A stretch of DNA of 64,000 nt from a virus, in the IMG/VR virus record IMGVR_UViG_3300025812_000003. One strand, 5' to 3'. The position numbers and the translations under genes are program-made. The notes under the pieces are model-generated. The model was not told where the DNA came from. It saw only the letters and a program-made list of their open reading frames with translations, and did not search any database. How positions within the stretch are numbered: position 1 is the first letter of the stretch; every line of letters begins with the position of its first letter. Positions 13,757 to 41,577 of the stretch are shown in pieces.

Positions 13757-14465
13757 CTTCGAGACGTCGGGCCGGGATCCCAAGGTGCACTCCGTCGTCG
13801 AGGCGGGGCTGGTGCTGTGGGACACCGAGCTGCGCCGACCCGTCAGGTCGGAGGGATTCCTCGTATACGACCCCGAGGCGGTATGGGAAGAAGGCGCTGC
13901 GGCGGTCAACGGCATCACGCAGGAGCGATGCAACCTGTACGGGCTTCCCGCCAAGGATGCCCTCGGGCGGGTCGTCGGGTTCTACCAGCAGGCCGACGTG
14001 CTCTGCGCCCACAACGGCACCGCCTTCGACAGGCCCTTCTACGAGAACTGGGGCGAGCGCATGGGCCGCGCCGAGCCCGGGGATCAGGGCAAGGTGTGGA
14101 TCGACACCATGGTCGACATACCCTACCCCAAGGAATGGTCGGTCAAGCTAAAGTACCTGGCCGCCGAGCACGGCATCCTCCACTACCGGGCCCATGGGGC
14201 TCTGTCCGACGCGATGGTAATGCTGGAGATACTGGATCGCTGGCTGCTGGAGCAGGTCCTGGAGTCCGCCAGGTCCCCCACCATCACGGTCAGGGCGCTC
14301 GTCTCCTACGACGACAGGGACAAGGCCAAGGCGCTGGGCTACCATTGGCGTCCCATCGAAAGGTGGTGGGTGAAGCCCGTCAAGGCCTTCCGCCTGGAGG
14401 ACGAGGAGGCCGAGGCGGTCAAGGCCGGGTTCGCCATCAGGCAGGTCAACATAGAAGGCGGATAG
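13737..14465 (+). CDS. DEDDh 3'-5' exonuclease (DnaQ-like)
   Basis: LDFETSG, AHNGTAFD, HGALSDA. Confidence 0.9.
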   Translation: MVVGGLDFETSGRDPKVHSVVEAGLVLWDTELRRPVRSEGFLVYDPEAVWEEGAAAVNGITQERCNLYGLPAKDALGRVVGFYQQADVLCAHNGTAFDRPFYENWGERMGRAEPGDQGKVWIDTMVDIPYPKEWSVKLKYLAAEHGILHYRAHGALSDAMVMLEILDRWLLEQVLESARSPTITVRALVSYDDRDKAKALGYHWRPIERWWVKPVKAFRLEDEEAEAVKAGFAIRQVNIEGG

Positions 14466-14540
14466 CATGGGCGAAGTCATGATGCTGCATGGCTGCGCCT
14501 TCGCGATGGAGGATCGCAGCGACGCAAGGCGGGAGGACTG

Positions 14541-15515
14541 ATGGAATTGGATGAGATGTACGACAGGGTGACCATTGCCTTCGCCAAACGGACAAATTCC
14601 GTTTTTGAGTCGGAAGAGTCACTCAAAGAGTGGTTCTTAAAATACTTTTCCCAATTACCTTTTGACAGGACAAATCATTGGGGAGGCTTAATCTACCTTC
14701 TTTTTCGTGATGCGTGGCTGGAGGCGGGCCCGGAGGTCAAGGGGGAGCCGACCGGGCACGACAGGAACGTCGTCCTCAGGAAGCTCTGCCCCCTCCTGGA
14801 CTACAGCCTCTTCACGCAGGTGATGCTGAACCTCCAGTCCTGCGCTGGCATGGCCTACCAGGCAAGGGACGCCGAGGCCGACATCGAGAAGCTCAGGAAG
14901 GACTGGCCGGAGGCCTCCAAGCTCAAGCCGTTCGAACCCAAGGCCAAGATGGTCAAGGAAGCGTCCACCGAGGAGGAGGACAGGTACAACCTGGTCCTCA
15001 GCACCCTGCGGTCGCTGAGGATCATCGCCGCCTTCACCCCGCAGATATCCTTCAGGGTCAGCCCCAAGGGCAGTACGCCCGCCCTGGCCGACAGCAACAA
15101 CCTGAGCAACCTCGGGATCGGGTCGGACAGGTACCTAAAGGTCCTCCCGGGCCTGAGGGCGTTCTACGTGCATTGGACGCCCGGCACCAGTCCCACCATG
15201 ACGATGCAGCTCATGGATTACTCCGAGACGACGAACCCCGAGAAGGGCATGGCGTTCGTGGCCGCGGGCATCCCCTACGTGTTCCGTTCCAAGTCGGGAG
15301 GGGAAATCCTCAACCAAGTCCTGTTCTCAAGGAAGGTCGCACGGGAAATCTTCGCCGCCCACGACCCGACCGTGGAGACCTGCATCATCCTCCCGAGGAT
15401 GAGCTCGGTGCTGGCGGTGGCGGACGAGAGGGGAGAGAACCTGAAAAAAGCGTTCGAGGCCCTGAAAGGGGTGTATAATATGCTTGAGCTTTCGGAAGGA
15501 GCGAGAAATGCATAG
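14541..15515 (+). CDS. hypothetical protein
   Basis: 324-aa ORF, GGAGG SD. Confidence 0.7.
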   Translation: MELDEMYDRVTIAFAKRTNSVFESEESLKEWFLKYFSQLPFDRTNHWGGLIYLLFRDAWLEAGPEVKGEPTGHDRNVVLRKLCPLLDYSLFTQVMLNLQSCAGMAYQARDAEADIEKLRKDWPEASKLKPFEPKAKMVKEASTEEEDRYNLVLSTLRSLRIIAAFTPQISFRVSPKGSTPALADSNNLSNLGIGSDRYLKVLPGLRAFYVHWTPGTSPTMTMQLMDYSETTNPEKGMAFVAAGIPYVFRSKSGGEILNQVLFSRKVAREIFAAHDPTVETCIILPRMSSVLAVADERGENLKKAFEALKGVYNMLELSEGARNA

Positions 15516-15939
15516 CTTTGCGTTCTATCCCTACGCCATATTCATCCTGGTATTGTCGGGGCTCGTCGCTTGGCTCATGGTGAGGTTATGCCGCCTGGAG
15601 AATCGCGTGAGCTTGCTGAAGGCCCCCGAGAATCCGACGAAGTGCCTGCTGGTCATCGCCCCGGACGTCGACCAAGGACAGGACTTGCTGGATGACTGGC
15701 TCTCCCAGGATAAGCAGGAAGAAGAGGACGTCATACGCCGTTTCAACAAGACTGTAGGCGCGAACCCCTCCGCACAGTCGGATGCCGACCCGGAGTACGA
15801 CATGGTGATCGAATTCGAGATCCCCAAGCCCACCAGCCACGCCGGTTGCACGGGGCCCGACAAGATCTCGCCCATCGACCAATTGCTGCACGAGCCCACC
15901 AGCCACGCCGGTTGCACGGGGCCCGACAAGGAGGCCTGA
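15508..15939 (+). CDS. membrane-anchored hypothetical protein
   Basis: N-terminal TM; duplicated PTSHAGCTGPDK. Confidence 0.6.
   Translation: MHSFAFYPYAIFILVLSGLVAWLMVRLCRLENRVSLLKAPENPTKCLLVIAPDVDQGQDLLDDWLSQDKQEEEDVIRRFNKTVGANPSAQSDADPEYDMVIEFEIPKPTSHAGCTGPDKISPIDQLLHEPTSHAGCTGPDKEA
15827..15930 (+). repeat. 38-bp perfect direct repeat
   Basis: AGCCCACCAGCCACGCCGGTTGCACGGGGCCCGACAAG at 15827 and 15893. Confidence 0.9.
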
Positions 15940-15940
15940 C

Positions 15941-16270
15941 ATGAAAAGGCCGATTTTCTGGTATGTTGCCATCGTCCTGTTCCTCGCCCTTTTCCCGATG
16001 CCAGCAAACACCAAGGACGACATGCGCATGTTTAGCTGGAAGGGCGAGAGGACCCCGAATGGGGTGATGCTCATCGAGCCCATGATGCCGGTCAAGCTCC
16101 GGGTGGCACCGACGTCCGCCAAGGACATACTCCCCAAAGCCACATACAAGTGCGTGCCGGTGACGCTGCCTCTCGAATACAAGGAGGACTCGAAGGACAA
16201 GGTCGTCCAGCAATTGCACCTTGACTGCGGAAACACGACGTTCGTGGTCCTGGGGATAGAGTTCCAATGA
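15941..16270 (+). CDS. secreted hypothetical protein
   Basis: Signal-peptide-like N-terminus. Confidence 0.6.
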   Translation: MKRPIFWYVAIVLFLALFPMPANTKDDMRMFSWKGERTPNGVMLIEPMMPVKLRVAPTSAKDILPKATYKCVPVTLPLEYKEDSKDKVVQQLHLDCGNTTFVVLGIEFQ

Positions 16271-16542
16271 GCTTCCTGGTCATAGCGGGCTCGTGCTTGT
16301 TCCTGATTCTTGCGGGATGGATCATCCACGAGATGCTGGGAAGGCCGGTCGCCCCGGACGGGGTGTTCAAGGAAGTCCTGAGGATGCTCCTGTTCTATCC
16401 CTCCATGATCTTCGGCAACGGCGAGTTCGTGGCAAAGAGCGGGACGCTCAAGTTCCGGTTCCTGGAATGGCTGTACGGGCCAGGGGAGCCCGAGTTCGAC
16501 GTAATATGGCCAGACGATGACAAAGAGGACGGGAATCCATGA
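16267..16542 (+). CDS. membrane hypothetical protein
   Basis: Hydrophobic N-terminus, ATGA overlaps. Confidence 0.55.
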   Translation: MSFLVIAGSCLFLILAGWIIHEMLGRPVAPDGVFKEVLRMLLFYPSMIFGNGEFVAKSGTLKFRFLEWLYGPGEPEFDVIWPDDDKEDGNP

Positions 16543-16908
16543 AGAAGCTTTCGAAATCCAAGGTCAACTACCGGAAGCACGAGCGCAAGATGTTCGCCCG
16601 GCAGGACAGGCGAGAGGCCGCCAGGCAGGCATCGAAGGCCATGAGGCAGCCCGAAAGGAAAGCGGAAGGTTGAGGAGGTCGGGCAGATGAGCGATCACCT
16701 CAGCACCAATGAATGGATGGTCATATTCGCTTTGAAGAAGGACCCTCGTTGCAAAATCATCGGGGACCAAGCGGAGACGGCGGAGAAAATGGTCGGGGAT
16801 GGACTACTCCTGCGCAGCGCCAAGAACAAAGGAGAATATAGCGTAACATCCCAAGGATGGAGGCAGTACTACCACGTGGTAACGGGATAGCACAACGGAG
16901 GAAAACAA

Positions 16909-17103
16909 ATGAGGAACCCATCGGTGTACACGGCGTCGGAACTGGCCGCCTGGCGGACAGCCAAGCAGTGCGCGCCCGGAAGGTGGCAGCCGTCGAGGCC
17001 GCTGCCGTTCTACGGCCTGAGGCTGATCCGCAGCTTCCGGCTCGCCTGGCGGGTCTTGGTCGGGCGCTATGACGCCCTGGACTGGGAAGACGGGGCGGCC
17101 TGA
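16909..17103 (+). CDS. small hypothetical protein
   Basis: GGAGG SD. Confidence 0.55.
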   Translation: MRNPSVYTASELAAWRTAKQCAPGRWQPSRPLPFYGLRLIRSFRLAWRVLVGRYDALDWEDGAA

Positions 17104-17147
17104 AAAGATTTCCTTGAAATTTTTGACTACGGAAGGTATTATATGGA
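17103..17147 (+). promoter_or_regulatory. sigma70-type promoter of tRNA array 1
   Basis: TTGAAA(17114)-17nt-TATTAT(17137); 41/45 identical to 39722-39766. Confidence 0.85.
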
Positions 17148-17293
17148 CGAACGAAGTTTGGCATTCGAAGCAGTTTGGCGTAGGGGCTGGTCAGCAGCCC
17201 CTACGCCTTAGGAAAGCGTCCCGTGCGGGCAGTTGGCTCTAGGCACCATTGAATTCCGGACGACGTTCCGGCCACGGGGCATGAGGTTTGGAA

Positions 17294-17386
17294 ATGAAGA
17301 ACCTGTCGAGCAACCCGTCATCGTCGCTAAGCTATCCGTCCTTGCTTAGTAGCGTGCCTGTGTCGCTCGAAGAAGGCGACTCCTAG
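17294..17386 (+). CDS. putative attenuator leader peptide (Ser/Leu/Tyr-rich)
   Basis: MKNLSSNPSSSLSYPSLLSSVPVSLEEGDS*; GAGG SD; 11 Ser, 5 Leu, 1 Tyr; precedes terminator and Tyr/Leu/Ser tRNAs. Confidence 0.75.
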   Translation: MKNLSSNPSSSLSYPSLLSSVPVSLEEGDS

Positions 17387-17413
17387 AGGGAGCGCAATTC
17401 GAGTTTAAGACCC

Positions 17414-17447
17414 AGGCCGCCAGAGAGTTTGGCGGCCTTTTTGTTTT
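17414..17447 (+). terminator. intrinsic terminator (attenuator) before tRNA array 1
   Basis: AGGCCGCCA-7nt-TGGCGGCCT then TTTTGTTTT. Confidence 0.85.
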
Positions 17448-17449
17448 GT

Positions 17450-17538
17450 GTCAGGGTGGGCGAGCGGCTAATGCCAGCAGACTGTAAATCTGCCGCCCCT
17501 TGCGGGCTCCGCAGGTTCGAATCCTGCCCCTGGCACCA
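17450..17538 (+). tRNA. tRNA-Tyr(GTA)
   Basis: GCAGA-CTGTAAA-TCTGC, long V-arm, encoded CCA. Confidence 0.93.
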
Positions 17539-17543
17539 GATTT

Positions 17544-17629
17544 GCGGTCGTGGCGGAATTGGCAGACGCACAAGGTCGAGGGCCTTGCGGTTAACAGCCA
17601 TGGGGGTCCGACTCCCCCCGACCGCACCA
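17544..17629 (+). tRNA. tRNA-Leu(GAG), C33/C55 variant
   Basis: CAAGG-TCGAGGG-CCTTG; T-loop TCCGACT; CCA. Confidence 0.88.
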
Positions 17630-17634
17630 GGATC

Positions 17635-17739
17635 GTTCGGCTAATTCTATGAAACGGAAGCTGGCAGACCCCCCAGTGACCGGCGAAAGCTGTGGCAGGC
17701 GAGATCACGCCAAGGCGCTTGAGTAGCTGGTCGTCGAAC
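17635..17739 (+). ncRNA. unassigned structured RNA
   Basis: Closing stem GTTCGGC/GTCGAAC, internal hairpins including CGGC-GAAA-GCTG. Confidence 0.4.
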
Positions 17740-17748
17740 ATAGGATTT

Positions 17749-17826
17749 GCGCAGGTGAAGGGAACCGGCAGACCTCCCTGGCTTAGAACCAGGGGCTTGG
17801 GGGTTCGACTCCCCCTCTGCGCACCA
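17749..17826 (+). tRNA. tRNA-Leu(TAG), short variable loop
   Basis: CCTGG-CTTAGAA-CCAGG; A73; CCA. Confidence 0.85.
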
Positions 17827-17832
17827 AGGTTT

Positions 17833-17919
17833 GCGGCTGTGCTGAAATAGGCAGACAGGCCAGGCTCAGAACCTGGTGGTGGAAACACCGTGGAGGTTCA
17901 ATTCCTCTCAGCCGCACCA
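17833..17919 (+). tRNA. tRNA-Leu(CAG)
   Basis: CCAGG-CTCAGAA-CCTGG, long V-arm, CCA. Confidence 0.92.
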
Positions 17920-17924
17920 AGTTT

Positions 17925-18011
17925 GCCCTCGTGTCGGAATCGGCAGACGAGCACGGCCCAAACCCGTGTGGCCGAAAGGCCATGGAGGTTCAAGTCCTCT
18001 CGGGGGCACCA
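17925..18011 (+). tRNA. tRNA-Leu(CAA), C33
   Basis: CACGG-CCCAAAC-CCGTG, long V-arm, CCA. Confidence 0.88.
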
Positions 18012-18017
18012 GGATTT

Positions 18018-18102
18018 GCCGGGCTGGCGGAAACGGCAAACGCGGGGCACCTAAAACGCCCTGGCGAAAGCCTTGAGGGTTCGAGTCCCTCGCCCGGCAC
18101 CA
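18018..18102 (+). tRNA. tRNA-Leu(TAA), C33
   Basis: GGGCA-CCTAAAA-CGCCC, long V-arm, CCA. Confidence 0.87.
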
Positions 18103-18108
18103 ATTTTC

Positions 18109-18196
18109 GGAGGGGTGGTCGAGCGGTCTATGGCACTCGACTGCTAATCGAGTAGGGGTAACACCCTCGCGGGTTCGAATCCCGCCCCCTCCGCCA
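18109..18196 (+). tRNA. tRNA-Ser(GCT)
   Basis: CTCGA-CTGCTAA-TCGAG, G73, CCA. Confidence 0.93.
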
Positions 18197-18203
18197 AAGC
18201 TTA

Positions 18204-18289
18204 GGAGGGCACCGCCGAATGGTCGGCAACTGGCTTTGAACACCAGGGCCGGGTAGCACCGGGGCGTTCGATTCGTCTGCTCTCCGCCA
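18204..18289 (+). tRNA. tRNA-Ser(TGA), 8/4 fold
   Basis: 8-bp acceptor GGAGGGCA/TGCTCTCC, 4-bp T-stem, loop TTTGAAC. Confidence 0.85.
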
Positions 18290-18347
18290 TTGCTAAAGCG
18301 GATTTGCTCATTAAACCAGATTGGTTTAGAGAGCAATCCCAATTTAC

Positions 18348-18435
18348 GGAGAGGTGGCCGAGCGGCCTAAGGCGCACGCCTGGAAAGCGTGTAGCCCGCA
18401 AGGGCTCGTGGGTTCGAATCCCACCCTCTCCGCCA
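18348..18435 (+). tRNA. tRNA-Ser(GGA)
   Basis: CACGC-CTGGAAA-GCGTG, CCA. Confidence 0.93.
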
Positions 18436-18592
18436 TTTTGCCGTGTTCACGGCTCCATGAACACGGCTCAGATCGTGAACACAAGATGGAAATATCTTAC
18501 GAGCAGTTCATTAACGAGATTTCGACCTCCATCGCAACGGGCCACAAAGTGACACTGGAATGCGGTGGCAAGACTTACGCCTACAAGTTCAC

Positions 18593-18678
18593 GGAGGACG
18601 CCGCCGAACGGCCGGCAACCGGCCTCGAAAGCCGGGGCAGGGCAAAACCTGGGGGTTCGATTCCCACGTCCTCCTCCA
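18593..18678 (+). tRNA. tRNA-Ser(CGA), 8/4 fold
   Basis: 8-bp acceptor GGAGGACG/CGTCCTCC; CCGGC-CTCGAAA-GCCGG; U73. Confidence 0.8.
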
Positions 18679-18729
18679 ACTCCCTTCCCTAGAATCCCTG
18701 CTTTCCATACCTAAACAGAGGGCGAAAAC

Positions 18730-18912
18730 GTGAAGAGGGCCATCCGGCTGTCCGTGGAATGGCAGATGCTCAGCAAGACGGTGGAGTTCGGCATCATATT
18801 CCTGGTGCTGGGGCGGCTGTCCCTCAGCCTCCTCATCACGGGGATCACCACGGCGGTGCAGGTCGCCCTGCTCGCCCTCTGGATCAGGTTCCGCCTCAAG
18901 GAACGGGGGTAA
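18730..18912 (+). CDS. small membrane protein
   Basis: Two hydrophobic stretches. Confidence 0.5.
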   Translation: MKRAIRLSVEWQMLSKTVEFGIIFLVLGRLSLSLLITGITTAVQVALLALWIRFRLKERG

Positions 18913-18914
18913 AC

Positions 18915-19382
18915 ATGGCCAAGGAAGTACTGGCCCCGAACAAGTACGGCCCCGAGGGCTACAAGGTGTTCCTGGGCGGTGCCATAGACCAGGGGACCGC
19001 CGAGGACTGGCAGTCTCGGGTGGTCGATGCGCTGGCGGACGTGGACGTCGTCGTCCTCAACCCCCGCCGCGAGGACTGGGATTCTTCATAGGAGCAGTCC
19101 GCCGACAACCCCGAGTTCAGGCGGCAGGTGGAATGGGAGCTCAAGGCCCAGGAGGATGCCGATCTGTGCGTCTACGTGCTTCTCAAGGACAGCAAGGGCC
19201 CCGTCACCATGCTGGAAATCGGCCTGTTCGCCCCGAAGAAGGACGCCGTCCTGTGCATCGAGGACGGGTTCCACAGGCAGGGCAACCTCCAAATCGTGGC
19301 CAGACGCTACGAGATTCCGTTCTACCACGGCCTCGACGAGATGCTGGCGGACCTCAAGGAAGTCTTGAAGGGACGTGCCTGA
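18915..19382 (+). pseudogene. nucleoside deoxyribosyltransferase-like gene with in-frame TAG (19089-19091); pseudogene or read-through
   Basis: VFLGGAID..DWQ..NPRREDWDSS*EQSADNPEFRRQVEWEL...GPVTMLEIGL, one frame. Confidence 0.8.
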
Positions 19383-19819
19383 TGGACGGCAGGCTGGGCT
19401 GGCAGGAACTCGGATCGACCTACCTATACCACGGCACCACGCAGGACCGCCTGTCCGGAATCCTGAGGGAGGGCATCAGGGGGCCTAGCTGGTGGGGCAC
19501 GGAGCGCGTCGCCGAATACTACTCCGAGGACAGGGAGGCATCCAGGAACGACGACGAGCTGGTGGACCTGGACTACATCGAGGAACCCCCAGCGGAGCCG
19601 CTCGTCGTCCGCGTCCCGCTGTCGAGGTTCGACAAGGGGTCGCTTGCGGCGGACGAGAACTCCATCGCCGAGCCGCTCACCAACGTCCTCGGGCGGGACG
19701 AGGAACGTCTGTATCACCAGTGGATGCTATCCAGGCGCACTTGGCAGGACTGCCTGAGGATATACGAGTCGGTGTGGTACAACGCACCCATGGAAGTCAC
19801 CGAGGCCGACATCCTATGA
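19382..19819 (+). CDS. putative ADP-ribosyltransferase-fold protein
   Basis: YLYHGTT...ILREGI motif. Confidence 0.5.
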   Translation: MDGRLGWQELGSTYLYHGTTQDRLSGILREGIRGPSWWGTERVAEYYSEDREASRNDDELVDLDYIEEPPAEPLVVRVPLSRFDKGSLAADENSIAEPLTNVLGRDEERLYHQWMLSRRTWQDCLRIYESVWYNAPMEVTEADIL

Positions 19820-19850
19820 CGCGGAAGGAAATCCCGGGGAAGGAGGCCCG

Positions 19851-20402
19851 ATGCTGAAGCTCGCGGCGGAGTTCCTCGTCAGGGCGAGGCTCCCCAGGCG
19901 TCCGGGGATGGTCGGGCCGGTCTACCACGGCACCTCGCAGGAATTCGAGGACTTCAGCCTGCCCGAGGACGTCGCCGATGAGGACTTCGAGGGGATCGGC
20001 GTCCACTTCGGCACCGTGGGGCAGGCGGAGACCGCCGCCAGGCGGTCCCCGGGCATCATCCGCGACGAGGGTTCGCCGGGGGAGGGGGCCAACATACGCC
20101 CGGCATACCTGAAGATTGGGAAGCCCCTGCGCATGCCGGACATGAACGAATGGGACCCCGAGGAGGTCGCCTACTGGCTCCTGGGGCACGGGGTCGTCGA
20201 CCGGGGGCAGCTCTCCCGCATGCTGGCCATAAGCCGGGCCCCGGGGGGCATCGACTACACGGCGGGATACAGGCTCATCCGGGAATGGCTGGACGCCAAG
20301 GGATACGATGCCATCGTGTACAGGAACAAGAAGGAGGGCAAGGGCGACAGCTACGTCGTGTGGCACCTGGGGCAGATAGTGCCCGCCCTGAGGGAGGAAT
20401 AG
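19851..20402 (+). CDS. ART-PolyVal-like ADP-ribosyltransferase
   Basis: VYHGT..FEDF..GVHFGT..AYLKI.KPL..GYDAIVY.N..EG..SYVVW..GQI. Confidence 0.7.
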   Translation: MLKLAAEFLVRARLPRRPGMVGPVYHGTSQEFEDFSLPEDVADEDFEGIGVHFGTVGQAETAARRSPGIIRDEGSPGEGANIRPAYLKIGKPLRMPDMNEWDPEEVAYWLLGHGVVDRGQLSRMLAISRAPGGIDYTAGYRLIREWLDAKGYDAIVYRNKKEGKGDSYVVWHLGQIVPALREE

Positions 20403-20403
20403 C

Positions 20404-20733
20404 ATGAACATCACCAAAGCGGCGTTCTTACCCGTCATACTCCTGCTCGCCGTGGGCACCATGGCCCAGCAGCAGGCCGAGCAAACGTTCCCGCAGGACA
20501 AGGTCAAGGCGGTGGCCGCCTCCACCGCCACTTCCACCGCCTCGTCCGCAGAGACGAAGCCAACGGTACCCGCAAAGACGCATGAGAAGGCATCCGTGGC
20601 GTTCCAACGGCACGTCGACAACGCCAAGCTGCACCTCCAGCACGCCAAGCAGCACCTCAAGGACGCCAAGCAGCGCCTCAAGGACGCCAATGCGCCCGCC
20701 AAGAAGCCCGCTCCCACGGAGGAGGACAAATGA
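20404..20733 (+). CDS. secreted hypothetical protein
   Basis: Signal peptide; heptad-like AKxxLxx repeats. Confidence 0.6.
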   Translation: MNITKAAFLPVILLLAVGTMAQQQAEQTFPQDKVKAVAASTATSTASSAETKPTVPAKTHEKASVAFQRHVDNAKLHLQHAKQHLKDAKQRLKDANAPAKKPAPTEEDK

Positions 20734-21218
20734 GCCAGCTACCGTTCCGAGAAAGGGCGAAGGGATGGCTGGACCTGCTCCAGGTCGCCCTGACCATCGC
20801 CGCCATCCTGACGGCGGGATGGTGGTTCCACAGGCAGGGGCAGAACCGCCCCCACCTCAAGGTGGAGCACCGCGTCACCAGCCGCAGGCTGTCCCCCGAC
20901 CGGCAGCTCCTCGTCGTGGACGTGAGGATGTCCAACGTGGGGAGCATCCCCCTCAGCCTTGGCGAGGTCAAAATCAAGGTGTACGAAATCCTCCCCGAGG
21001 GAAGGGTGCTCGCCTACAGCGAGCAGAGGGGGAAGACCCTGGAGCCGGGCGAGGAGACTCACGTGTACGAGGAGTTCGACCAAATAGAAGGGGACGTGTC
21101 CGTCGTGAGGGTCTACTCGTTCTTTGAGAACTCGGTCACCAGAGGACGGGGATGGGACCTGGCCACCATCTACGACATGGGGGAGTCAGGAACGGAAACC
21201 GTTGGGAAGGAGCATTGA
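20730..21218 (+). CDS. membrane-anchored hypothetical protein
   Basis: N-terminal TM then beta-rich domain. Confidence 0.65.
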   Translation: MSQLPFRERAKGWLDLLQVALTIAAILTAGWWFHRQGQNRPHLKVEHRVTSRRLSPDRQLLVVDVRMSNVGSIPLSLGEVKIKVYEILPEGRVLAYSEQRGKTLEPGEETHVYEEFDQIEGDVSVVRVYSFFENSVTRGRGWDLATIYDMGESGTETVGKEH

Positions 21219-21596
21219 ATGGCGGAGGACTGGGGCATCGACGTGGGGGTACCGGACATCGGCGACAAGGTGGAGTACAAAGACAGGACCTTCAATGTCA
21301 CCGGCTGGCTCCGGGAGCGCAAGAAGGTAAAGCCTCGTTGGGACTACGAGGTCGGCGACGTCAGGGACCCGGACTTCTTTGACGAGGTCATCTTCGAGGC
21401 TCAGCGGCCAATCCATGGCAAGAAGCTGGAGTGGTGCTACCGGGACGAGGCGGAGTTTCTCTCAGCCACCCCCTACGGCTGCATCCCCGTCATAGAGGCA
21501 AGGATTGTGGGGAGGGCCCCCTGGGCGGAGAGCATCCTGCAGGAGTTCAGGAATTCGGCAAAACGCTTTGCCGACACCCATCAAATCGTGTTCTAA
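21219..21596 (+). CDS. hypothetical protein
   Basis: AGGAG SD. Confidence 0.6.
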   Translation: MAEDWGIDVGVPDIGDKVEYKDRTFNVTGWLRERKKVKPRWDYEVGDVRDPDFFDEVIFEAQRPIHGKKLEWCYRDEAEFLSATPYGCIPVIEARIVGRAPWAESILQEFRNSAKRFADTHQIVF

Positions 21597-21725
21597 GATC
21601 AAGTCCCACGACTATCAGTATTATGGTTGGGGGCGAAAAGCAATCCCCCAGTCAGCCGCCAGGCTGGCCATCCAGCCGACTTTAAGCATACAAGCCCTCA
21701 GTCGGCGGGCTTAGAGGTGACTTAA

Positions 21726-22634
21726 ATGCATTCCCATTCGTTCGTAACAGCGATCAAGGTGGACGGGAACGTGCTCCGCGAGGACCGGGGGGTGGTGTCG
21801 GTGCCGTTCGGGTCCGAGTACAGCATATTCCTGAAGAACCTGGGGACCGTGAGGGCCCTGGCCAAGGTGTCCATCGACGGCGAGGACGCCACCGACGACA
21901 CTTGGCTGATCGTCAACCCCAACCAGTCGCTGGACTTGGAGAGGTTCATCCGCAACGGGAACATGGACCGGGGCAACCGGTTCAAGTTCATCAAGAGGAG
22001 TGCCAAGGTCGAGGAGCACCGAGGCATAAAGGCCGAGGATGGCCTCGTCAGGGTGGAGTACAAGTTCGAGAAGGTGTACGAGCCCCCGAAGGTCGTCGAG
22101 CACCACTACCACCATCACCACGACTGGGATTACTACTATCCCTATTATCCTTATCCCTACCCGTACCCCTATTTGCCCCATTACCCATATACGACCTACT
22201 ACACCACCAGCGGAGGACAGGGAGAGGCGTGGGACAACAGCGTCCAAGGAAATGCCTGTAACAGCGACAACGTGAGCGATGCCTCCGCCAACCATGCCTT
22301 CACCCACACCAGCGGTTCCCTCCATTCCAAGGGGGCCGTCGCGGCAAACTTCTGCTCCACCAGCCATGCTGAGGGACTCCTCAGGCAGGCGGAGGACCCC
22401 GGCATCACCGTGCCGGGCAGCCTCAGCGAGCAGAAGTTCGTGGACGGGGAATGGTTCGACACCGAGGCGAAGTCCCATGTCATCGTCCTCAGGCTGGTCG
22501 GGGCGGTAAGGGGCAAGGAAGTCAGGCGGCCCATCACCGTCAAGACCAAGACGAAGTGCCCCACGTGCGGCACCACGAACAAGAGCGGGGTCAAGTTCTG
22601 CAAGGAATGCGGGACCGGCCTCGAACTTATCTAG
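21726..22634 (+). CDS. phage protein with C-terminal zinc ribbon
   Basis: VPFGSEYSIFLKN N-domain, H/Y/P-rich linker, CPTCG...FCKECG. Confidence 0.75.
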   Translation: MHSHSFVTAIKVDGNVLREDRGVVSVPFGSEYSIFLKNLGTVRALAKVSIDGEDATDDTWLIVNPNQSLDLERFIRNGNMDRGNRFKFIKRSAKVEEHRGIKAEDGLVRVEYKFEKVYEPPKVVEHHYHHHHDWDYYYPYYPYPYPYPYLPHYPYTTYYTTSGGQGEAWDNSVQGNACNSDNVSDASANHAFTHTSGSLHSKGAVAANFCSTSHAEGLLRQAEDPGITVPGSLSEQKFVDGEWFDTEAKSHVIVLRLVGAVRGKEVRRPITVKTKTKCPTCGTTNKSGVKFCKECGTGLELI

Positions 22635-22694
22635 TAGTACAGCCGCCCCGGCCCCCGGAGACGGGGGCCGGGGGCTTGTCCGAGGAGGAACGAC

Positions 22695-22892
22695 ATGAAG
22701 GACTTTCCGATGTGCGGCCATCCGGAATGGCCGGTATTCCCTCCCCCAGCGCCGGTGCGCACGGTGGGTACCTGCCCCGAGCACGACTACGTCTGCCCCC
22801 TGTGCGGGTTCGGACGAGGCCAAGCGCCCCCGTGCGGGTGCGGGACGTCCGTCCTCGGGACCGACCCGCTCGTGATCGCCCAGTCCAATTAA
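22695..22892 (+). CDS. small Cys/Pro-rich protein
   Basis: GAGGAGG SD; CPEH..VCPLCG. Confidence 0.5.
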   Translation: MKDFPMCGHPEWPVFPPPAPVRTVGTCPEHDYVCPLCGFGRGQAPPCGCGTSVLGTDPLVIAQSN

Positions 22893-22902
22893 GGAGAATG
22901 CC

Positions 22903-23145
22903 ATGGTTACCCCGTTCATCCAGCCAGTCATCACGGTCATCCCATCGAGGAGGCCCGTCCCGATGTTCCCCCGGCGATGCCCCCGGCCCCGCCCCGTCCC
23001 GGTCCCCTTTCGCGACCCATAGGTCGAGTCCCAGTGCATCCTCAACAAGCCCCTGCTGATGGTCATACCCCCAGGGGGGATCGTCCTGCCGTGCCCCGTT
23101 CATCCCGGGAGACATTTCGTCCACGGATCGCCCGTCATGTGGTAA
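22903..23145 (+). pseudogene. small Pro/Cys ORF with in-frame TAG (23020-23022)
   Basis: AAGGAG SD; MVTPF...FRDP*VESQCILNKPLLMVIPPGGIVLPCPVH...VMW*. Confidence 0.45.
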
Positions 23146-23180
23146 GGCGCGGAATCCCCGCCCATGCGGTATTGTAGGGC

Positions 23181-23639
23181 ATGGAAGAATGGGACTTGGC
23201 CCCGGATGGTCGCAAGCGATACTGCGTGGGCTACGTGCTTAGCCCCGACCTCTCCGACGTCGTGCTCATCCGCAAGAATCGGCCGGAATGGCAGAAAGGC
23301 CTCCTCAACGGCGTGGGCGGAAGGCTGCAAGACGGGGAGGATTCCCTCCATGGCATGGCAAGGGAATGCCGCGAGGAGGCAGGACTGGACATCGCGATAT
23401 GGCGTCGCCTCGCCCGGCTGGAGTTCCCGTTGGCAGTCGTATGGTTCTTCTGGACGATAGACCCCCATTATCGCCTTGCCAGGACCATGACGGACGAAAA
23501 GATAGAGATCGTGGACGTAGCCAGAGTCATGTCGATGACGGATGGCACCGTCCCCAATTCCGCCTGGCTCATCCAGATGGCCATATCCCACGTCCGAGGA
23601 GAGCGGGCGGAATGGTTTATCGTGCGGGAGGTATACTGA
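23181..23639 (+). CDS. NUDIX hydrolase
   Basis: GVGGRLQDGEDSLHGMARECREEAGL Nudix box. Confidence 0.88.
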   Translation: MEEWDLAPDGRKRYCVGYVLSPDLSDVVLIRKNRPEWQKGLLNGVGGRLQDGEDSLHGMARECREEAGLDIAIWRRLARLEFPLAVVWFFWTIDPHYRLARTMTDEKIEIVDVARVMSMTDGTVPNSAWLIQMAISHVRGERAEWFIVREVY

Positions 23640-24400
23640 TGGACAAGAAAGGCTTTTCCTACGCCCAGGCCAAGTTCCTGCCCAGGAATTACGAGTTCGC
23701 CCCGGTGACCCTGTCAAACCGCAGGGTCGTCTCGGACAGGGAGGCCCAGGAGCTGGCCGGAATGCCCCAGCTTAAAAACACCCTGCAACTCCTGCAACGC
23801 TACGACTACATCATTCGCGGCATGGTCCTGGAGCTCACGGGATGGATCCTGAGGGACAAGTACGAGCACGAGCTCGTGACGAAGACCGTTGAACTCCCGT
23901 TGACTTGGTGGGACATGTTCAGGGATAAATATTTCCCCCTATGGTGGTTGAAGTGGCGACCGTCCAGGACGGCGACGAAGACCTTCACCTTCGAGCAGCA
24001 AATAAGGGTGTGCCCGCACGCCAATGTCGCCTGGCCGGACAAGAGGCACCTGGATTTCCTGACGTTTGAAAACGAGAACCCCTTCGTCACTATCAACCAA
24101 ACCACCCCGGAATGCTTGGTGCACCACGTTCCCATGGTTTTGTGTTTCTACAGCCGGGGTCCCGGGGACCCCCCGGGAAACGGATGGACATGCCGGGAAT
24201 GCACCAAGGAGCGGGAAGGGGAGGCGACGGGGAAGAACGGGACGGACACCAATGGCGATGGCGACTGCATGTATTGTGGTCCCAGTCTTCGGCATCCGCC
24301 GAAAGAATCCAAAGAACAAGAGAAACTATGCCCGACGTGCGGGGTGAAGGAATCCGAGCCCCATGCTGACCCAAGGTGCTACGTGAGAGAAAGAAGATGA
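23639..24400 (+). CDS. hypothetical protein with Cys-rich C-terminus
   Basis: Stop-start overlap, several CxxC. Confidence 0.55.
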   Translation: MDKKGFSYAQAKFLPRNYEFAPVTLSNRRVVSDREAQELAGMPQLKNTLQLLQRYDYIIRGMVLELTGWILRDKYEHELVTKTVELPLTWWDMFRDKYFPLWWLKWRPSRTATKTFTFEQQIRVCPHANVAWPDKRHLDFLTFENENPFVTINQTTPECLVHHVPMVLCFYSRGPGDPPGNGWTCRECTKEREGEATGKNGTDTNGDGDCMYCGPSLRHPPKESKEQEKLCPTCGVKESEPHADPRCYVRERR

Positions 24401-26904: not shown

Positions 26905-27369
26905 ATGGACTTCACGCTGGAATTCGCCGACGACGGCAGCCCGAAATGCCTGTCGGAAATCGAGTGCTCCTATCCCTCCACTCCCATGCACCACACATGC
27001 CTGCGAAAGGCCGGGCACGCAGGGCCGCATGCCACGCACGTCTTCTGGCAGCAGGAAGCAACCTTCAAAGGCACGACATTCAACGTCCAGTCGGGCGGGA
27101 TCGTGACGTGGGAGCCCAAGGGAAGGAAGCCAAGGTGCGAATGGAACCCCGCGAAGAAAAGGGCCGCATACCCGACGGACCGGGGCGGGCACGAGGCCAA
27201 CGGAATCGCATACAGCCCCGTAAGCATCTGGGGGCCCTACCAGAATGACATCTTTATATGCAGGGAATGCTGGAGCACCCCGGTGGCACGGGCAAAGTTT
27301 GCCGGGTGGAGGTGGGTGGAGACAAAGCCGGACGATCACGGCTGCATGCACGTTTCGCTCGGAGGGTAA
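26905..27369 (+). CDS. hypothetical protein
   Basis: GGAGG SD; Cys/His motifs. Confidence 0.55.
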   Translation: MDFTLEFADDGSPKCLSEIECSYPSTPMHHTCLRKAGHAGPHATHVFWQQEATFKGTTFNVQSGGIVTWEPKGRKPRCEWNPAKKRAAYPTDRGGHEANGIAYSPVSIWGPYQNDIFICRECWSTPVARAKFAGWRWVETKPDDHGCMHVSLGG

Positions 27370-27376
27370 GGCAGGC

Positions 27377-28165
27377 ATGAAAAGGGAAAAGAACGCCCTG
27401 ACGGCCAGGATGAAGGACAGCTACGAGCTGCGGTGCAGGCGCTACTTCCCGCGGCGGACGCACGTCATCGTCCGCGTGGACGGAAGGGCGTTCCACACCT
27501 GGACCAGGGGCCTCCGGAAGCCCTACGACCCGGACTTCATGGCATGCATGGACGCCGCCGCCCTGGCGCTATGCAAGGAGGTCTCGGGATGCAAGCTCGG
27601 GTACGTCCAGTCGGACGAGGTGAGCCTGCTCCTGACGGACTTCGACTCCGTGGAGACCCAGGCGTGGTTCGACAACTGCCAGGACAAGATCGAGAGCATC
27701 ACGGCCAGCATCGCCACCATGGCGTTCAACCGGCACGTGGGGTGGTTCCGCCAGGACTTCGTCCTCGGCATCAACCCCGAGGGCGTCAAGGCCCACCCCA
27801 TGGCGGGCAAAAAGCCCGACGCCACGTTCGACTCCCGGGCCTTCGTCATCCCGGACTACGTCGAAGTGGAGAACTACTTCATCGACCGGCAGAAGGACGC
27901 CATCAGGAACTCCATAACGATGCTGGCCAGCGCCCATGCCAGCCCCAAGCAGCTTTTCGGGAAAAAATCCGCAGACAGGCTCGCGCTCGTAGGCGAGGCG
28001 GGCCTCGAATGGAAGGCGCAGCCGGTGCGGTTCAGGCGGGGGGCGGCGGTATGGAAGGCCGAGGACGGATGGGTGGCGGACCCCTGCACGCCCGAGTTCA
28101 CGAAGCACAGGGATTTCCTGAGGAACTCCATTCCGCGCCATTGGCAGGAGGACGAAAATGTCTGA
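27377..28165 (+). CDS. Thg1-like tRNA(His) guanylyltransferase / 3'-5' polymerase
   Basis: RVDGRAFHTWT, YVQSDEVSL, FDSRAF, YFIDRQKDAIRNSI. Confidence 0.92.
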   Translation: MKREKNALTARMKDSYELRCRRYFPRRTHVIVRVDGRAFHTWTRGLRKPYDPDFMACMDAAALALCKEVSGCKLGYVQSDEVSLLLTDFDSVETQAWFDNCQDKIESITASIATMAFNRHVGWFRQDFVLGINPEGVKAHPMAGKKPDATFDSRAFVIPDYVEVENYFIDRQKDAIRNSITMLASAHASPKQLFGKKSADRLALVGEAGLEWKAQPVRFRRGAAVWKAEDGWVADPCTPEFTKHRDFLRNSIPRHWQEDENV

Positions 28166-34665: not shown

Positions 34666-35768
34666 GGGAGATTCTCGTCCTGGTCGGTCTGGCAGCGGGA
34701 TTCGTTTTGGCATTCGGGATATCATGGTCGCTCCATTGGACCCGCAGGGCATGGAAGGCCGACTGCGAGTATGCCGCCATCCGGGCCAAGGAGAGGCGGA
34801 ACCTTGAGCTCGATGCCATAGGGGCGGCAAGGAATGCCCTCAGGGCATGGGGGCTCTGCCCCAGGTGCGGGACGGCCGATGGGCTGCTAGGAATCGACGG
34901 CACCCCAGAGAGCTCGGCGGATTATCGCTGGTGCGACGATGCGTTTCATGCCGTAGGGGAGTTCGATAGGTGGCCAGTCGGGGAGGCGCATGCCAGGGCG
35001 GAACGGAAGCTCATAAAGTACGGCATGAGAATCCTAAGGGGGGTCAAGGAGGCATGCTGACATGGGCATGATACTCGACACCAGGGACGACGTCCTTGGG
35101 CTGGAGGAACGGCGGGAGTCGTTCGTAGTGGTGGACAAGAAAAGGCTCTACCCCTGCGAGCAGGACCCGAGGCCGAAGGACCGGACCGTCCTTGCGGTCA
35201 AGTCGGAGTACATCTTCGCCAATGCGGACGGGGAGATAGAGGTTTCCAAGGAATTCTTGATCAAGCTGGTGGAGTTCTTCGGCCTGCCGGAGAACCGCGA
35301 CATGCTCAGGAGAAAATAACATGGGCCGGGGAATGTTGACCTTCAAGGAAACTATGAGGTTGACGGCAAGCGACGGGTGCGCCGTAAGGCGGCCCTACCC
35401 GAGGACGGCCCCATGCGCCGTGCTTTGCGAGGCGGACGGGGACCAAATCGTGGCCATGATCGGCCCCAACCCCATGGAAGGCGTGTGCGGGTACGGCGAC
35501 ACGCTGCCGGAGGCGCTGCGAAACCTGGCCAATGAGCTGGAGCGGGAAGTGGGGGAGGACCCGAAGACGGGATGACCTTCGCCATGAAGAAAAACGGGCG
35601 ATACGAAGCGGGGCCAACGCCGCATGGGACGTGGGAAATCCGGGTGCTGGACGAGGACGGCACTTGGGTATTGGTTGTATGGGTGGACGAATCATCGGGG
35701 CTCGACGAGCACTGGGGGGCGTCGAACCCCGGTTTGTTTTACAAGGAAGGGTACGCCAAGGTATTTCC

Positions 35769-36716
35769 ATGAACGAACATCTCTACGGCAAGCTCAAGCA
35801 GGCAATGGTCCAGTTCGGGAAGGTCGACCCCGACAGCGTCATCCTGGCATTCGCCTCGGGCTCCCGCTTGCACGGGGCAAGGCACGAGGGGGAGGGGGAC
35901 CTCGATGTGGCGGGAGCGTTCATAGGACGCCCGCACGAGGAGCTGCGCCTGGACAGCGAGGACCCGAAGAAGGGGGGCCACGCCAGCGCCAGCACGTCCT
36001 CGGACAAGAGGAAGAACTCCAAGGACGACGTCGACGTGAAGGCCTACAGCCTCAGGCGGTGGGCGGGCCTGGCCCTGAAGGGGAACCCCGCCGCCCTGTC
36101 GTTTCTGTTCGTCCCGGACGAGGTCCGGGACATGTCCGTGGAGCCCAAGTGCATATGGTCCTGCCCAACCGACGAGCAGCAATGCGAGTACCCGAAATGC
36201 CTGACGGAATGCCCGGACTTCGTCGGGGACAACGAATGCAAGCGCAGGAACAGGGAGGCGCACAGCCTGACGGCATGGGACCTCTTCGTCCTCCCGAACA
36301 AGGGCGTGTTCCTGGCGTCGAAGCATGCCAAGGCATTCCTGGGGCTGGGGAACGACCAGTTTGATCGGATGACGGAAAAGAACTGGGTGCGGACCCACAT
36401 CTCCCCGGTCGTTCCCGCCACGCAAGGCTACAAGAGCAAGCCCGCCATGCACATGATAAGGGGGATGATGGAAGGCATCGAGCTCCTGGGCACGGGAACC
36501 GTGACGTTTCCGAGGCCCGAGAAGGAGCTCCTCCTGGACATCAAGGAGGGAAGGATGAGCCTCCGGGAAATCCTGGACCTGTACAAGAGCCTGAGGGACA
36601 AGCTGAAGGAGGCGGAAAAGCGCTCGCCCCTCCCTCCGGAATGCGACAGGGAGGCCGCAGGCAGGCTGGTAGCGGACGCCATGCTCTGGCATTGGAAACT
36701 GAGGGGGTGGACATGA
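35769..36716 (+). CDS. RlaP-like (Pol-beta superfamily) nucleotidyltransferase
   Basis: GSRLHG....GDLDV.G.F, YSLRRW..LALKGNP, K.AMH.IR. Confidence 0.8.
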   Translation: MNEHLYGKLKQAMVQFGKVDPDSVILAFASGSRLHGARHEGEGDLDVAGAFIGRPHEELRLDSEDPKKGGHASASTSSDKRKNSKDDVDVKAYSLRRWAGLALKGNPAALSFLFVPDEVRDMSVEPKCIWSCPTDEQQCEYPKCLTECPDFVGDNECKRRNREAHSLTAWDLFVLPNKGVFLASKHAKAFLGLGNDQFDRMTEKNWVRTHISPVVPATQGYKSKPAMHMIRGMMEGIELLGTGTVTFPRPEKELLLDIKEGRMSLREILDLYKSLRDKLKEAEKRSPLPPECDREAAGRLVADAMLWHWKLRGWT

Positions 36717-39721: not shown

Positions 39722-39766
39722 AAAAGATTTCCTTGAATTTTTCGCCTACGGGAGGTATTATATGGA
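39722..39766 (+). promoter_or_regulatory. sigma70-type promoter of tRNA array 2
   Basis: TTGAAT(39733)-17nt-TATTAT(39756); near copy of 17103-17147. Confidence 0.85.
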
Positions 39767-39974
39767 TGGCAGGAGGAATCCTGGCCAGTACCAGTCCATA
39801 CGGGTTCGCATCGGGCGATGGTTTCCCGCGAGTCGCCGGGGTCGAAGCTAGGAGTGGGCGGCCCGGTAGGGCCGTGAAAGCGGCCCGCATCAAAACTTCG
39901 ACTATGAGACTGGTATTTAGACGGTGGAGATGCCGGACGAAAGAGTTACCCGGTCGACCGTCGAAGAGAGCGAA

Positions 39975-40070
39975 ATGCGAAACAGGAAACCCAATCCGAT
40001 GCAGTGGCAGCCCAAGCGGAACCATTTCCGCCCGGGCTACGGTGGGCCTCCTTTCGCAGGCAGCGCGTAG
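39975..40070 (+). CDS. putative attenuator leader peptide (R/N/K/P/M/Q/W/H/F)
   Basis: MRNRKPNPMQWQPKRNHFRPGYGGPPFAGSA*; first 20 codons use only amino acids of the downstream tRNAs. Confidence 0.75.
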   Translation: MRNRKPNPMQWQPKRNHFRPGYGGPPFAGSA

Positions 40071-40095
40071 GAAGCGCAAAGCGAACAGAGATTTG

Positions 40096-40133
40096 AGGCC
40101 CGCCGGGAGGATTTCGGCGGGCCTTTTGCTTTT
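40096..40133 (+). terminator. intrinsic terminator (attenuator) before tRNA array 2
   Basis: AGGCCCGCCG-9nt-CGGCGGGCCT then TTTGCTTTT. Confidence 0.85.
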
Positions 40134-40260
40134 GGGCGGGATAGATGGGAGGCGGTGAGCAGGATAGGCTGGGGCGACCCAAGCACTGCGGGCCTCCCGA
40201 ACGGCGTGAAGTCCCCGCTCCAGGATTAAGACGCCCCGAAGGAAGGACGGGGCGCAGGAT

Positions 40261-40335
40261 GTGGCCGAACCCAAACGGCGCGGGGGCTGGCTGTGAACCA
40301 GCTTCTAGTCGGTTCGACTCCGACCGGTCACCCCA
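40261..40335 (+). tRNA. tRNA-His(GTG), G-1 not encoded
   Basis: GCTGG-CTGTGAA-CCAGC; C73; base -1 is T. Confidence 0.9.
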
Positions 40336-40340
40336 GTGGG

Positions 40341-40460
40341 GGGATCAACAGGGTCAGGGCGGTTAAAGTGAGCCGCGCTCCAGACGTGGGCCGGTGCCCA
40401 CGGGCAGCAGGAGCCGCCCATCCTTGCGGGACGCGGGTTAACCTGCACTCGGTTGATCCC
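40341..40460 (+). ncRNA. unassigned structured RNA
   Basis: 9-bp closing stem GGGATCAAC/GTTGATCCC with internal hairpins. Confidence 0.5.
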
Positions 40461-40594
40461 AGGAATTGCGGCGGAAAGTTGCTGGCAAGTCGATCCAGGC
40501 TGGGCGGGGACCTAAAAAGTACCCGGGAGTCATGACCCGGAGAAACCCAGGCCGCCCCGGATATCGTGACCAGTGGACGCCGCCCTTAGATTGA

Positions 40595-40670
40595 GGTCCC
40601 GTCGTCCAAATGGAGAGGGCATAGCCCTCCGAAGGCTAGAATCCCGGTCCGAGTCCGGGCGGGACCTCCA
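40595..40670 (+). tRNA. tRNA-Arg(CCG), C55
   Basis: TAGCC-CTCCGAA-GGCTA; T-loop TCCGAGT; CCA. Confidence 0.83.
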
Positions 40671-40690
40671 GGATTGAAGGAGGATGATTC

Positions 40691-40765
40691 GCTCCCATAG
40701 CTCAGCGAAAGAGCGCTCGCCTTCGAAGCGAGGGGACGCAGGTCAAAGTCCTGCTGGGAGCACCA
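40691..40765 (+). tRNA. tRNA-Arg(TCG)
   Basis: CTCGC-CTTCGAA-GCGAG; atypical T-loop TCAAAGT. Confidence 0.83.
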
Positions 40766-40781
40766 AAATTGAATGGGTTGT

Positions 40782-40860
40782 GCCCCCGTAGCTCAGCCCG
40801 GACCAGAGCGCTCCGCTACGAACGGAGAGGTCGTGGGTTCAAATCCGACCGGGGGTACCA
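40782..40860 (+). tRNA. tRNA-Arg(ACG)
   Basis: CTCCG-CTACGAA-CGGAG, CCA. Confidence 0.92.
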
Positions 40861-40943
40861 GTTCTTGGCGGATGGCCACGCCATCGATCCTGCCTGGGGG
40901 CAGGGGAGGCGACTGGCCGGTTGGTTCCGCCGGAACGCATTGC

Positions 40944-41017
40944 TGGCATGTCATCCAACGGTAGGATGCCCGGCCGTTACCCGGAGAATGGGGGTCCGAC
41001 TCCCTCCGTGCCAGCCA
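40944..41017 (+). tRNA. tRNA-Asn(GTT), C33/C55 variant
   Basis: Loop CCGTTAC; T-loop TCCGACT; G73. Confidence 0.8.
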
Positions 41018-41046
41018 AGGATTGGAAGAGGAGGAAGGCTCAGCGT

Positions 41047-41121
41047 TCCTGGGTAGCTCAACGGTAGAGCATACGGCTGTTAACCGTAGCGTTGGGGGTT
41101 CGATTCCCTCCCCAGGAGCCA
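41047..41121 (+). tRNA. tRNA-Asn(GTT)
   Basis: TACGG-CTGTTAA-CCGTA, canonical. Confidence 0.93.
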
Positions 41122-41229
41122 AAAATCGAAAGGCAATGTTGGCGCGAAAAGGGAGGCGAGCACGCCTCGCCCGGTCCTCGAAGCTCCGGGGCGAATGTCC
41201 GTGGAAGCCGGGCTGCGCCAGCTAGGTTC

Positions 41230-41308
41230 GGAGTCGTAACTCAAACGGGTCAAGAGTAGCCGCCTTTTAAGCGGAAGGCTGCGGGCCCCCAATCCGCCGA
41301 CTCCACCA
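41230..41308 (+). tRNA. tRNA-Lys(TTT), aberrant T-loop
   Basis: Loop CTTTTAA; T-loop CCCCCAA; CCA. Confidence 0.75.
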
Positions 41309-41319
41309 AGTTTCGACGT

Positions 41320-41395
41320 GCGCTCGTAGCTCAACTGGCAGAGCAGCGGCCTCTTAAGCCGAAGGTTGCAGGATCGTCCCCTGTCGGGCGCACCA
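41320..41395 (+). tRNA. tRNA-Lys(CTT)
   Basis: Loop CTCTTAA; T-loop ATCGTCC; CCA. Confidence 0.85.
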
Positions 41396-41401
41396 GGATT
41401 T

Positions 41402-41478: not shown

Positions 41479-41482
41479 GGAT

Positions 41483-41564: not shown

Positions 41565-41577
41565 ATTGAGGGATTGC

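Follow-up and report, generated by a model that had tools for sequence, protein, structure and literature searches.

The 64,000-nucleotide stretch analysed here (hereafter the window) comes from a virus record, IMGVR_UViG_3300025812_000003, and contains two arrays of transfer RNA (tRNA) genes. Each array is probably under ribosome-mediated transcription attenuation, exerted through a leader open reading frame (ORF) written in the codons that its own tRNAs read. A preliminary description had proposed an attenuator of this kind for the first array, and the proposal survived the comparative tests that were run: the ORF is conserved, the design recurs at the second array and in a related phage (G002), and the predicted switch point falls at the end of the cognate run. 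Promoter, leader ORF, cognate run, terminator, array and conservation can all be read from the DNA itself.

Codon content of the leaders and their arrays

Array 1 lies on the plus strand, with its promoter, leader ORF, terminator and tRNA order as first described. The sigma-70-type promoter (TTGAAA-17-TATTAT, 17114–17142) has a near-identical copy before array 2, the two sharing a 45-base stretch with 4 differences. It is the sole promoter-like match in 14000–24000; shuffled sequences yield 2.2 matches, so the promoter scan alone proves nothing. A 13-base-pair (bp) perfect hairpin without a U tract (17177–17207) and a Shine-Dalgarno-like GAGG (17283–17286), 7 nucleotides (nt) 5′ of the start codon, precede a leader ORF of 30 codons (MKNLSSNPSSSLSYPSLLSSVPVSLEEGDS, 17294–17386), in which the control run spans codons 4–20 (17303–17353). 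The leader is followed by an intrinsic terminator (17414–17447; 11-bp stem at 17414–17438, T tract to 17447, −18.8 kcal/mol) that ends 2 nt before tRNA-Tyr, the first gene of an array (17450–18678) of Tyr(GTA), Leu(GAG, TAG, CAG, CAA, TAA) and Ser(GCT, TGA, GGA, CGA).

The reported richness of this leader in Ser, Leu and Tyr was borne out, with 17 of the 29 residues after Met belonging to these three (P = 6e-7; the background share is 0.172, from 22 long phage ORFs totalling 7645 codons). Of the 869 ORFs of 20–60 codons that start with ATG on either strand of the 95-kilobase (kb) genome, it alone has 13 such residues in 16, the runner-up reaching 10. Two claims about its codons held in part. 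All five Leu codons differ (P = 0.004, given phage codon usage), while the diversity of Ser codons is not significant (P = 0.10); and nine of the ten tRNAs find their own codon within codons 2–20, while TTA is absent and Leu(TAA) is matched by wobble only. Several of the codons used are rare in phage genes (CTA 4%, TTG 4%, TCA 2%). Codons 21–30 sit in or beyond the predicted antiterminator strand and are not control codons.

Array 2, missed in the preliminary description, is an internal replicate of this design. On the same strand, a promoter (TTGAAT-17-TATTAT, 39733–39761) is followed by a 31-codon leader ORF (39975–40070) with the core MRNRKPNPMQWQPKRNHFRP, an intrinsic terminator (40095–40134, −25.1 kcal/mol), and an array (40261–45012) of His, Arg, Asn, Lys, Phe, Met(CAT), Pro, Gln(CTG) and Trp tRNAs with an HNH gene inside; the Lys(TTT) anticodon was read by eye off an Rfam match at 41230–41305. 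The first 20 residues of leader 2 (MRNRKPNPMQWQPKRNHFRP) are amino acids of array 2 only, a run that is unique in the six frames of the genome.

The closest relatives found were G001 (238 kb) and G002 (317 kb, rated 99% complete). G002 carries four tRNA arrays, each behind its own matching leader. Before arrays 3 and 4 of G002 were fetched, we predicted that they would cover the leftover amino acids and have matching leaders, and both predictions were met: array 3 encodes Val, Gly, Ala, Asp, Glu, Cys and Ile-TAT, array 4 encodes Ile-GAT, Thr and Gln-TTG, and each is preceded by a promoter, a leader ORF of corresponding make-up and a terminator. The expectation that leader composition tracks array content in related phages thus holds at all four G002 arrays. 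These arrays read 14, 21, 18 and 7 codons with zero overlap, for a total of 60 of the 61 sense codons, and the left-over codon, GGG, is read by a lone tRNA-Gly(CCC) without a leader.

To quantify the match, codons 2–20 were taken as the control run (2–23 for leader 3) and anticodons beginning with G were credited with codons ending in U; the anticodon lists exclude ARAGORN calls whose anticodon was undefined. Codons 2–20 of leader 1 are read by its own array at 14/19 positions in the window (P = 1e-7), 16/19 in G002 and 15/19 in G004, and those of leader 2 at 19/19 in the window and 18/19 in each of two relatives, with lower values for leaders 3 (12/19) and 4 (10/19) of G002. Other arrays read 0–5 of these codons per leader. 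The own-array match has P < 1e-6 (1e-7 to 1e-10) for every leader except leader 3 (P = 0.017, weak), which opens with Thr and Ile codons belonging to array 4. All eight leaders thus carry the regulatory codons typical of ribosome-mediated attenuators, G002 leader 3 weakly so, and leaders 1 and 2 each rank first for their own array among the 869 ORFs. The correspondence extends to isoacceptors: Gln is written CAG in leader 2, whose array holds Gln(CTG), and CAA in leader 4, whose array holds Gln(TTG), while Ile ATA is placed in leader 3, whose array holds Ile-TAT. Across G002, 42 of 44 anticodons find their own codon in the control run. Such a codon match is very unlikely to be chance, and the feature is real.

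The predicted conservation of leader ORF 1 was observed in three lineages (the window; G001, G002 and L032; G004 and G005), and leader 2 is conserved in G002 and in G003–G006. Between the window and G002, codons 2–20 of leader 1 differ at 11 positions, comprising 6 synonymous changes and 5 replacements, all to Ser or Leu; this comparison is ungapped, and a one-codon shift at 15–19 would also fit. The changes include two AGC/TCC Ser switches and a swap of CTG and CTA between codons 4 and 12, and the stop is TAG in the window and TAA in G002. In G004 the leader is two codons shorter through in-frame indels. Beyond codon 20, 8 residues vary freely while the RNA helix is retained, as expected if that part serves structure. 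What is kept is codon class and not peptide sequence, and the four leader peptides share no sequence. These patterns are indirect signs of coding selection and would fit translation of the leaders. Stop-codon recoding was ruled out, TAG ending 8 of the 22 long ORFs.

The same layout occurs in cultured phages, with unrelated leader sequences. Four tRNA blocks were examined in CcrPW. Two of them come with a matching leader, accompanied in one case by a strong terminator and in the other by a hairpin whose U tract is poor. No leader follows the promoter of the Trp/Gly block, and none that matches was seen at the Glu/Asp pair. The strong-terminator leader block is matched in 38 records of Caulobacter and Brevundimonas phages. 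In the two records opened, phiCbK and Kikimora, a leader of 30–32 codons rich in Tyr, Arg, Gln, Val, Ile, Asn and Phe codons is followed by a terminator and then a block made up mostly of the tRNAs for those codons; in phiCbK (JX100813.1) the leader lies at about 51341–51439 and the terminator at 51465–51502.

Predicted RNA switch and competing explanations

The predicted folds of leader 1 reproduce both pairings proposed earlier: an antiterminator strand over the terminator 5′ arm (17352–17371 with 17398–17420) and, enclosed by it, a stop-codon hairpin (17376–17395). Three structures are predicted, namely a protector (1:2) hairpin of the early untranslated transcript (17303–17372, −24.2 kcal/mol), the antiterminator (2:3; 17352–17420), and the terminator (3:4). 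In leader 2, an 11-bp antiterminator (40040–40050 with 40095–40105) is likewise predicted to occupy the terminator 5′ arm.

From this arrangement we infer translation of the leaders, its coupling to transcription, the direction of control and the trigger. With a ribosome halted no further than about codon 17, 17352–17371 would stay free to pair with the terminator 5′ arm, and the antiterminator so formed would let polymerase read into the array; a ribosome that has moved past about codons 18–20 would break the antiterminator and allow the terminator to form. The signal would be a shortage, from any cause, of decoding-competent aminoacyl-tRNA for the control codons, since slow decoding at any one of them would hold the ribosome upstream of the antiterminator strand. 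The tRNAs made would then end the stall, giving negative feedback with one loop per array.

We modelled the switch by placing a ribosome at each codon, with two footprint sizes, and folding the RNA 3′ of it as far as the terminator loop; equilibrium folds of the full-length RNA were discarded because they gave the terminator almost everywhere. In all eight leaders, the 5′ arm is captured as long as the ribosome occupies the cognate run, and is let go around codons 15–22, where that run ends. In leader 1 of the window, capture drops from ~0.67 to near 0 at codons 19–21, and in the full transcript the terminator forms at 0.99 for codons 19–31. The capture drop of this leader (0.73 to 0.12) is the largest among the genome's 25 terminator-like hairpins. 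A long early hairpin is predicted for leaders 1–3 (−24 to −32 kcal/mol) and a weak one for leader 4 (−15.5 kcal/mol). The untranslated transcript is predicted to form the protector hairpin early and to prefer the antiterminator at the decision point, so the default state without translation may go either way. The antiterminator helix of leader 1 is kept despite sequence change: 5 of its 16 pairs change on both sides, 3 of them through a one-base register slip, and a clean two-sided change (T-A to C-G) is seen at 17367:17402. In these folds, antiterminator and terminator are mutually exclusive and switched by ribosome position. Folding is consistent with the attenuator model, and the main support for it is the codon match and its conservation.

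Several observations weigh against this interpretation. Capture rebounds to 0.4–0.8 at codons 24–29 of leader 1, a late-codon rebound also predicted in G002 and G004. Capture of at least 0.65 is reached at 10 of the 25 terminator-like hairpins of this GC-rich genome, a drop of at least 0.4 in addition is shared by leader 1 with an unrelated site (34097), and the drop in leader 2 (0.38) falls just under that cut. Tested against 1000 dinucleotide shuffles per leader, the competing duplex of leader 1 was matched by 34 shuffles in the window, 0 in G002 and 0 in G004, that of leader 2 by 33, 8 and 0, that of leader 3 by 5 and that of leader 4 by 94. The duplex is thus marginal for both window leaders, and that of leader 4 in G002 does not reach significance. 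At the codon level, leader 1 holds 5 codons of array 2, and the window pairs a tRNA-Leu(TAA) with a leader lacking TTA, while G004 has TTA and, by ARAGORN, no Leu(TAA). The window lengths used to rank ORFs by composition were picked after the peptides were seen. Ribosome-binding sites are weak in relatives (GAGA or GAAG), and leader 1 is known in three lineages only, two of them near-identical in their helices, which leaves two independent helix sequences, too few for covariation statistics.

The leaders could be attenuators that in practice act as general sensors of slow or failed translation, codon identity adding little. For all eight, the antiterminator is the fold predicted to be favoured wherever within the first ~14 codons the ribosome stands, such that any early stall would suffice; leader 1 retains Lys, Asn and Pro codons of array 2; and a cyanobacterial tRNA array is described as reacting to general translational stress (PMC10272220). 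We consider this unlikely, as it leaves unexplained why the four leaders of one genome use near-disjoint codon sets, each fitted to its array even in the choice of Gln CAG or CAA and of Ile ATA. The opposite direction of control, in which a leader translated to its stop blocks the terminator and fast decoding turns the array on, would fit a stop only 21–27 nt from the terminator and the late rebound in leader 1 of G002 and G004. It is nevertheless decidedly improbable, because the conserved competing helix requires a ribosome-free strand just past the cognate run, the predicted capture in leaders 2 (G002) and 4 is close to nil with the ribosome at the stop, and the window terminator is modelled at 0.99 over codons 19–31 in the full transcript.

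Two further explanations dispense with leader translation as a sensor. Terminator-like hairpins and arm-capturing folds are common in this genome, and phage tRNA genes need no leader, as the leaderless CcrPW Trp/Gly block and G002 tRNA-Gly(CCC) illustrate; the terminator might serve as a leaky insulator that is always on, or as a signal for processing, with an ORF that is incidental or encodes a peptide of separate function. With several independent leaders excluding chance at P ≤ 1e-7, and with conservation of codon class rather than of four peptides that share nothing, we regard this as very improbable. A codon-level match to anticodons would likewise be expected if an untranslated leader sensed tRNA by direct codon-anticodon pairing in the manner of a T-box, but ATG, stop and frame are conserved, even through indels, and no T-box was matched in Rfam over 17050–18750 at an expectation value (E) up to 10, making such pairing extremely improbable. 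Within the preferred interpretation, ribosome-mediated attenuation, the varied synonymous codons of the leaders, several of them rare in phage genes, suit a sensor of individual tRNAs better than a sensor of amino-acid supply. They would also fit the replacement of host tRNA cleaved by a nuclease, although the sensor would be blind to host versus phage tRNA, and to cleavage versus lack of charging.

Genomic context and additional features of the loci

The virus record with the window comprises 95,171 bases at 62% G+C and is a jumbo-phage fragment, given the lengths of G001 and G002. The region occurs in 20 runs labelled peat or wetland metagenome, each a possible source of the window, and no RNA dataset containing it is listed. 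The leader region is unchanged across four assemblies aligned to 17050–18750, and no variants were seen among contigs compared over both leaders; all of these assemblies and runs may themselves be the source of the window. A host link sought through the leader-2 pattern in genome contigs gave 0 matches, as did the promoter pattern in viral contigs. Against named phages, array 1 matched 444 records through single tRNAs only, none reaching 80% cover. Used as bait, the nucleotidyltransferase recovered 6 distant loci, 2 of them with 2–3 tRNAs, and the HNH gene 4 loci, of which L009 and L010 are without a tRNA array. One of three metagenome matches to the leader-1 pattern (L031) was dropped as a chance match without tRNAs.

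Among 29 proteins scanned, we identified rIIA/rIIB, a tail-fibre gene, and three tRNA-handling genes, namely a tRNA-His guanylyltransferase (27245–28165), a nucleotidyltransferase (35532–36716) and an HNH-fused RNA ligase (58074–59039). The tRNA-His of array 2 (40261–40335) has T and not G at −1. Just downstream of array 1, an in-frame TAG (19089–19091) interrupts a gene (18927–19382) whose first part matches phrog_30579 and whose frame is open beyond the TAG.

Several tRNAs of array 1 are of unusual form. Default ARAGORN recovers nine of the ten, Ser(TGA) (18204–18289) needing relaxed stringency. Both this tRNA and Ser(CGA) (18593–18678) have 8-bp acceptor stems and short T stems, matching the 8/4-type tRNAs reported from phages (PMC5389517), and Ser(CGA) has U as discriminator. 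At only 78 nt, tRNA-Leu(TAG) (17749–17826) is without the long variable arm seen in the array's other Leu tRNAs. Structured spacers lie at 17630–17748 (−38.0 kcal/mol) and 18290–18347 (−20.5 kcal/mol), without a convincing Rfam match. Within array 2, two further GTATTAT promoter-like sites (42736 and 43293) lie upstream of the HNH gene and of the distal Arg(TCT, CCT) tRNAs, and AGA does not occur in the leader 2 control run. An in-frame upstream ATG after GGTGGAG (39930–39974) would extend leader 2 to 46 codons, a start not present in G002.

Around the leaders of relatives, arrays 1 and 3 of G002 have, 5′ of their leader promoters, a further promoter and non-coding sequence rich in hairpins (L019 525–900; L021, reverse, 1745–1940). 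Between the array-4 terminator and the first tRNA, G002 also has ~370 nt of apparently coding sequence (L022 1650–2015), and a protein gene there would share the control of array 4. In L032, the sequence more than ~90 nt before the leader ATG is wholly unlike G002, with several small hairpins instead of a promoter. In G004 (L034 ~790–1056), an ORF with a C-x-x-C-N motif (HNH-like, by eye) directly precedes leader 1, whose ATG overlaps the TGA of this ORF, an overlap that suggests translational coupling.

Relation to known systems and implications for phage tRNAs

Leader-peptide attenuation of a component of the translation machinery, with sensing of charged tRNA, has a counterpart in the E. 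coli pheST attenuator, which differs from the phage leaders in responding to one amino acid and in targeting a synthetase. T-box riboswitches resemble the phage leaders in that tRNA status picks terminator or antiterminator, but they bind one uncharged tRNA directly, with no translation. T-boxes lie upstream of tRNA genes in some Firmicutes, an arrangement not found in our literature search. In 17050–18750, no Rfam leader family matched at E up to 10, the 28 Rfam matches at that threshold included no T-box, and no T-box reached the gathering score in the window.

In the attenuators of amino-acid operons (trp, his, leu, thr, ilvGMEDA, ilvBN, pheA), as described in PMC1183508, regulatory codons likewise sit in a leader ORF, the 2:3 and 3:4 hairpins exclude each other, and an intrinsic terminator precedes the regulated genes; those of thr and ilv are multivalent, a trait shared by the phage leaders. 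The phage leaders fall outside the strict class of amino-acid biosynthetic attenuators, their downstream genes being tRNAs. They further differ in being carried by a phage, in sampling with one leader, through different synonymous codons, 10–16 isoacceptors of up to nine amino acids, and in dividing the code among four leaders. The trn array of Anabaena PCC 7120 is likewise described as a long, mobile run of tRNA genes linked to an HNH gene (PMC10272220, PMC8421152) and as silent until translational stress (PMC10272220), whereas its control is reported to act at initiation, through the ribbon-helix-helix repressor TrcR (PMC10272220, PMC8421152). The terms "attenuat-", "leader" and "uORF" are absent from the main text of PMC8421152, and no codon specificity is described in the text available from either paper. 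In the text available from a survey of premature terminators (PMC2965389), no phages appear, and the four passages on tRNA concern T-boxes, synthetases and a reporter. We found no published leader-peptide attenuation of tRNA arrays in a search that left most subscription journals and supplements outside its reach. The mechanism, ribosome-mediated attenuation, is thus known, while its target, tRNA genes, was not found in print, and the locus adds a four-way partition of the code and a prediction tested out of sample.

Tentatively, it is possible that the whole genetic code is divided in this phage family among four tRNA operons, each with an isoacceptor-resolving sensor, so as to resupply on demand whichever class the host destroys, by an anticodon nuclease for example; such an inducible, codon-specific counter-defence would act as a tRNA homeostat. 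Bacterial anticodon nucleases of known specificity include PrrC, directed at Lys tRNA (PMC10264068). Colicin D is directed at Arg tRNA. The leaders would carry leader-peptide attenuation from enzymes over to tRNA genes, and may offer natural multi-codon biosensors of tRNA depletion. The purpose of phage tRNAs has been unsettled for decades, between codon compensation and replacement of nuclease-depleted tRNAs (PMC10264068). Array-specific sensors would bring this question within reach of a reporter of 150 nt and also, through the like arrangement in phiCbK, of an established phage and its host. A sensor wired to each array would imply that phage tRNAs are an on-demand supply, and the leaders would reveal which shortages the phage is built to detect.

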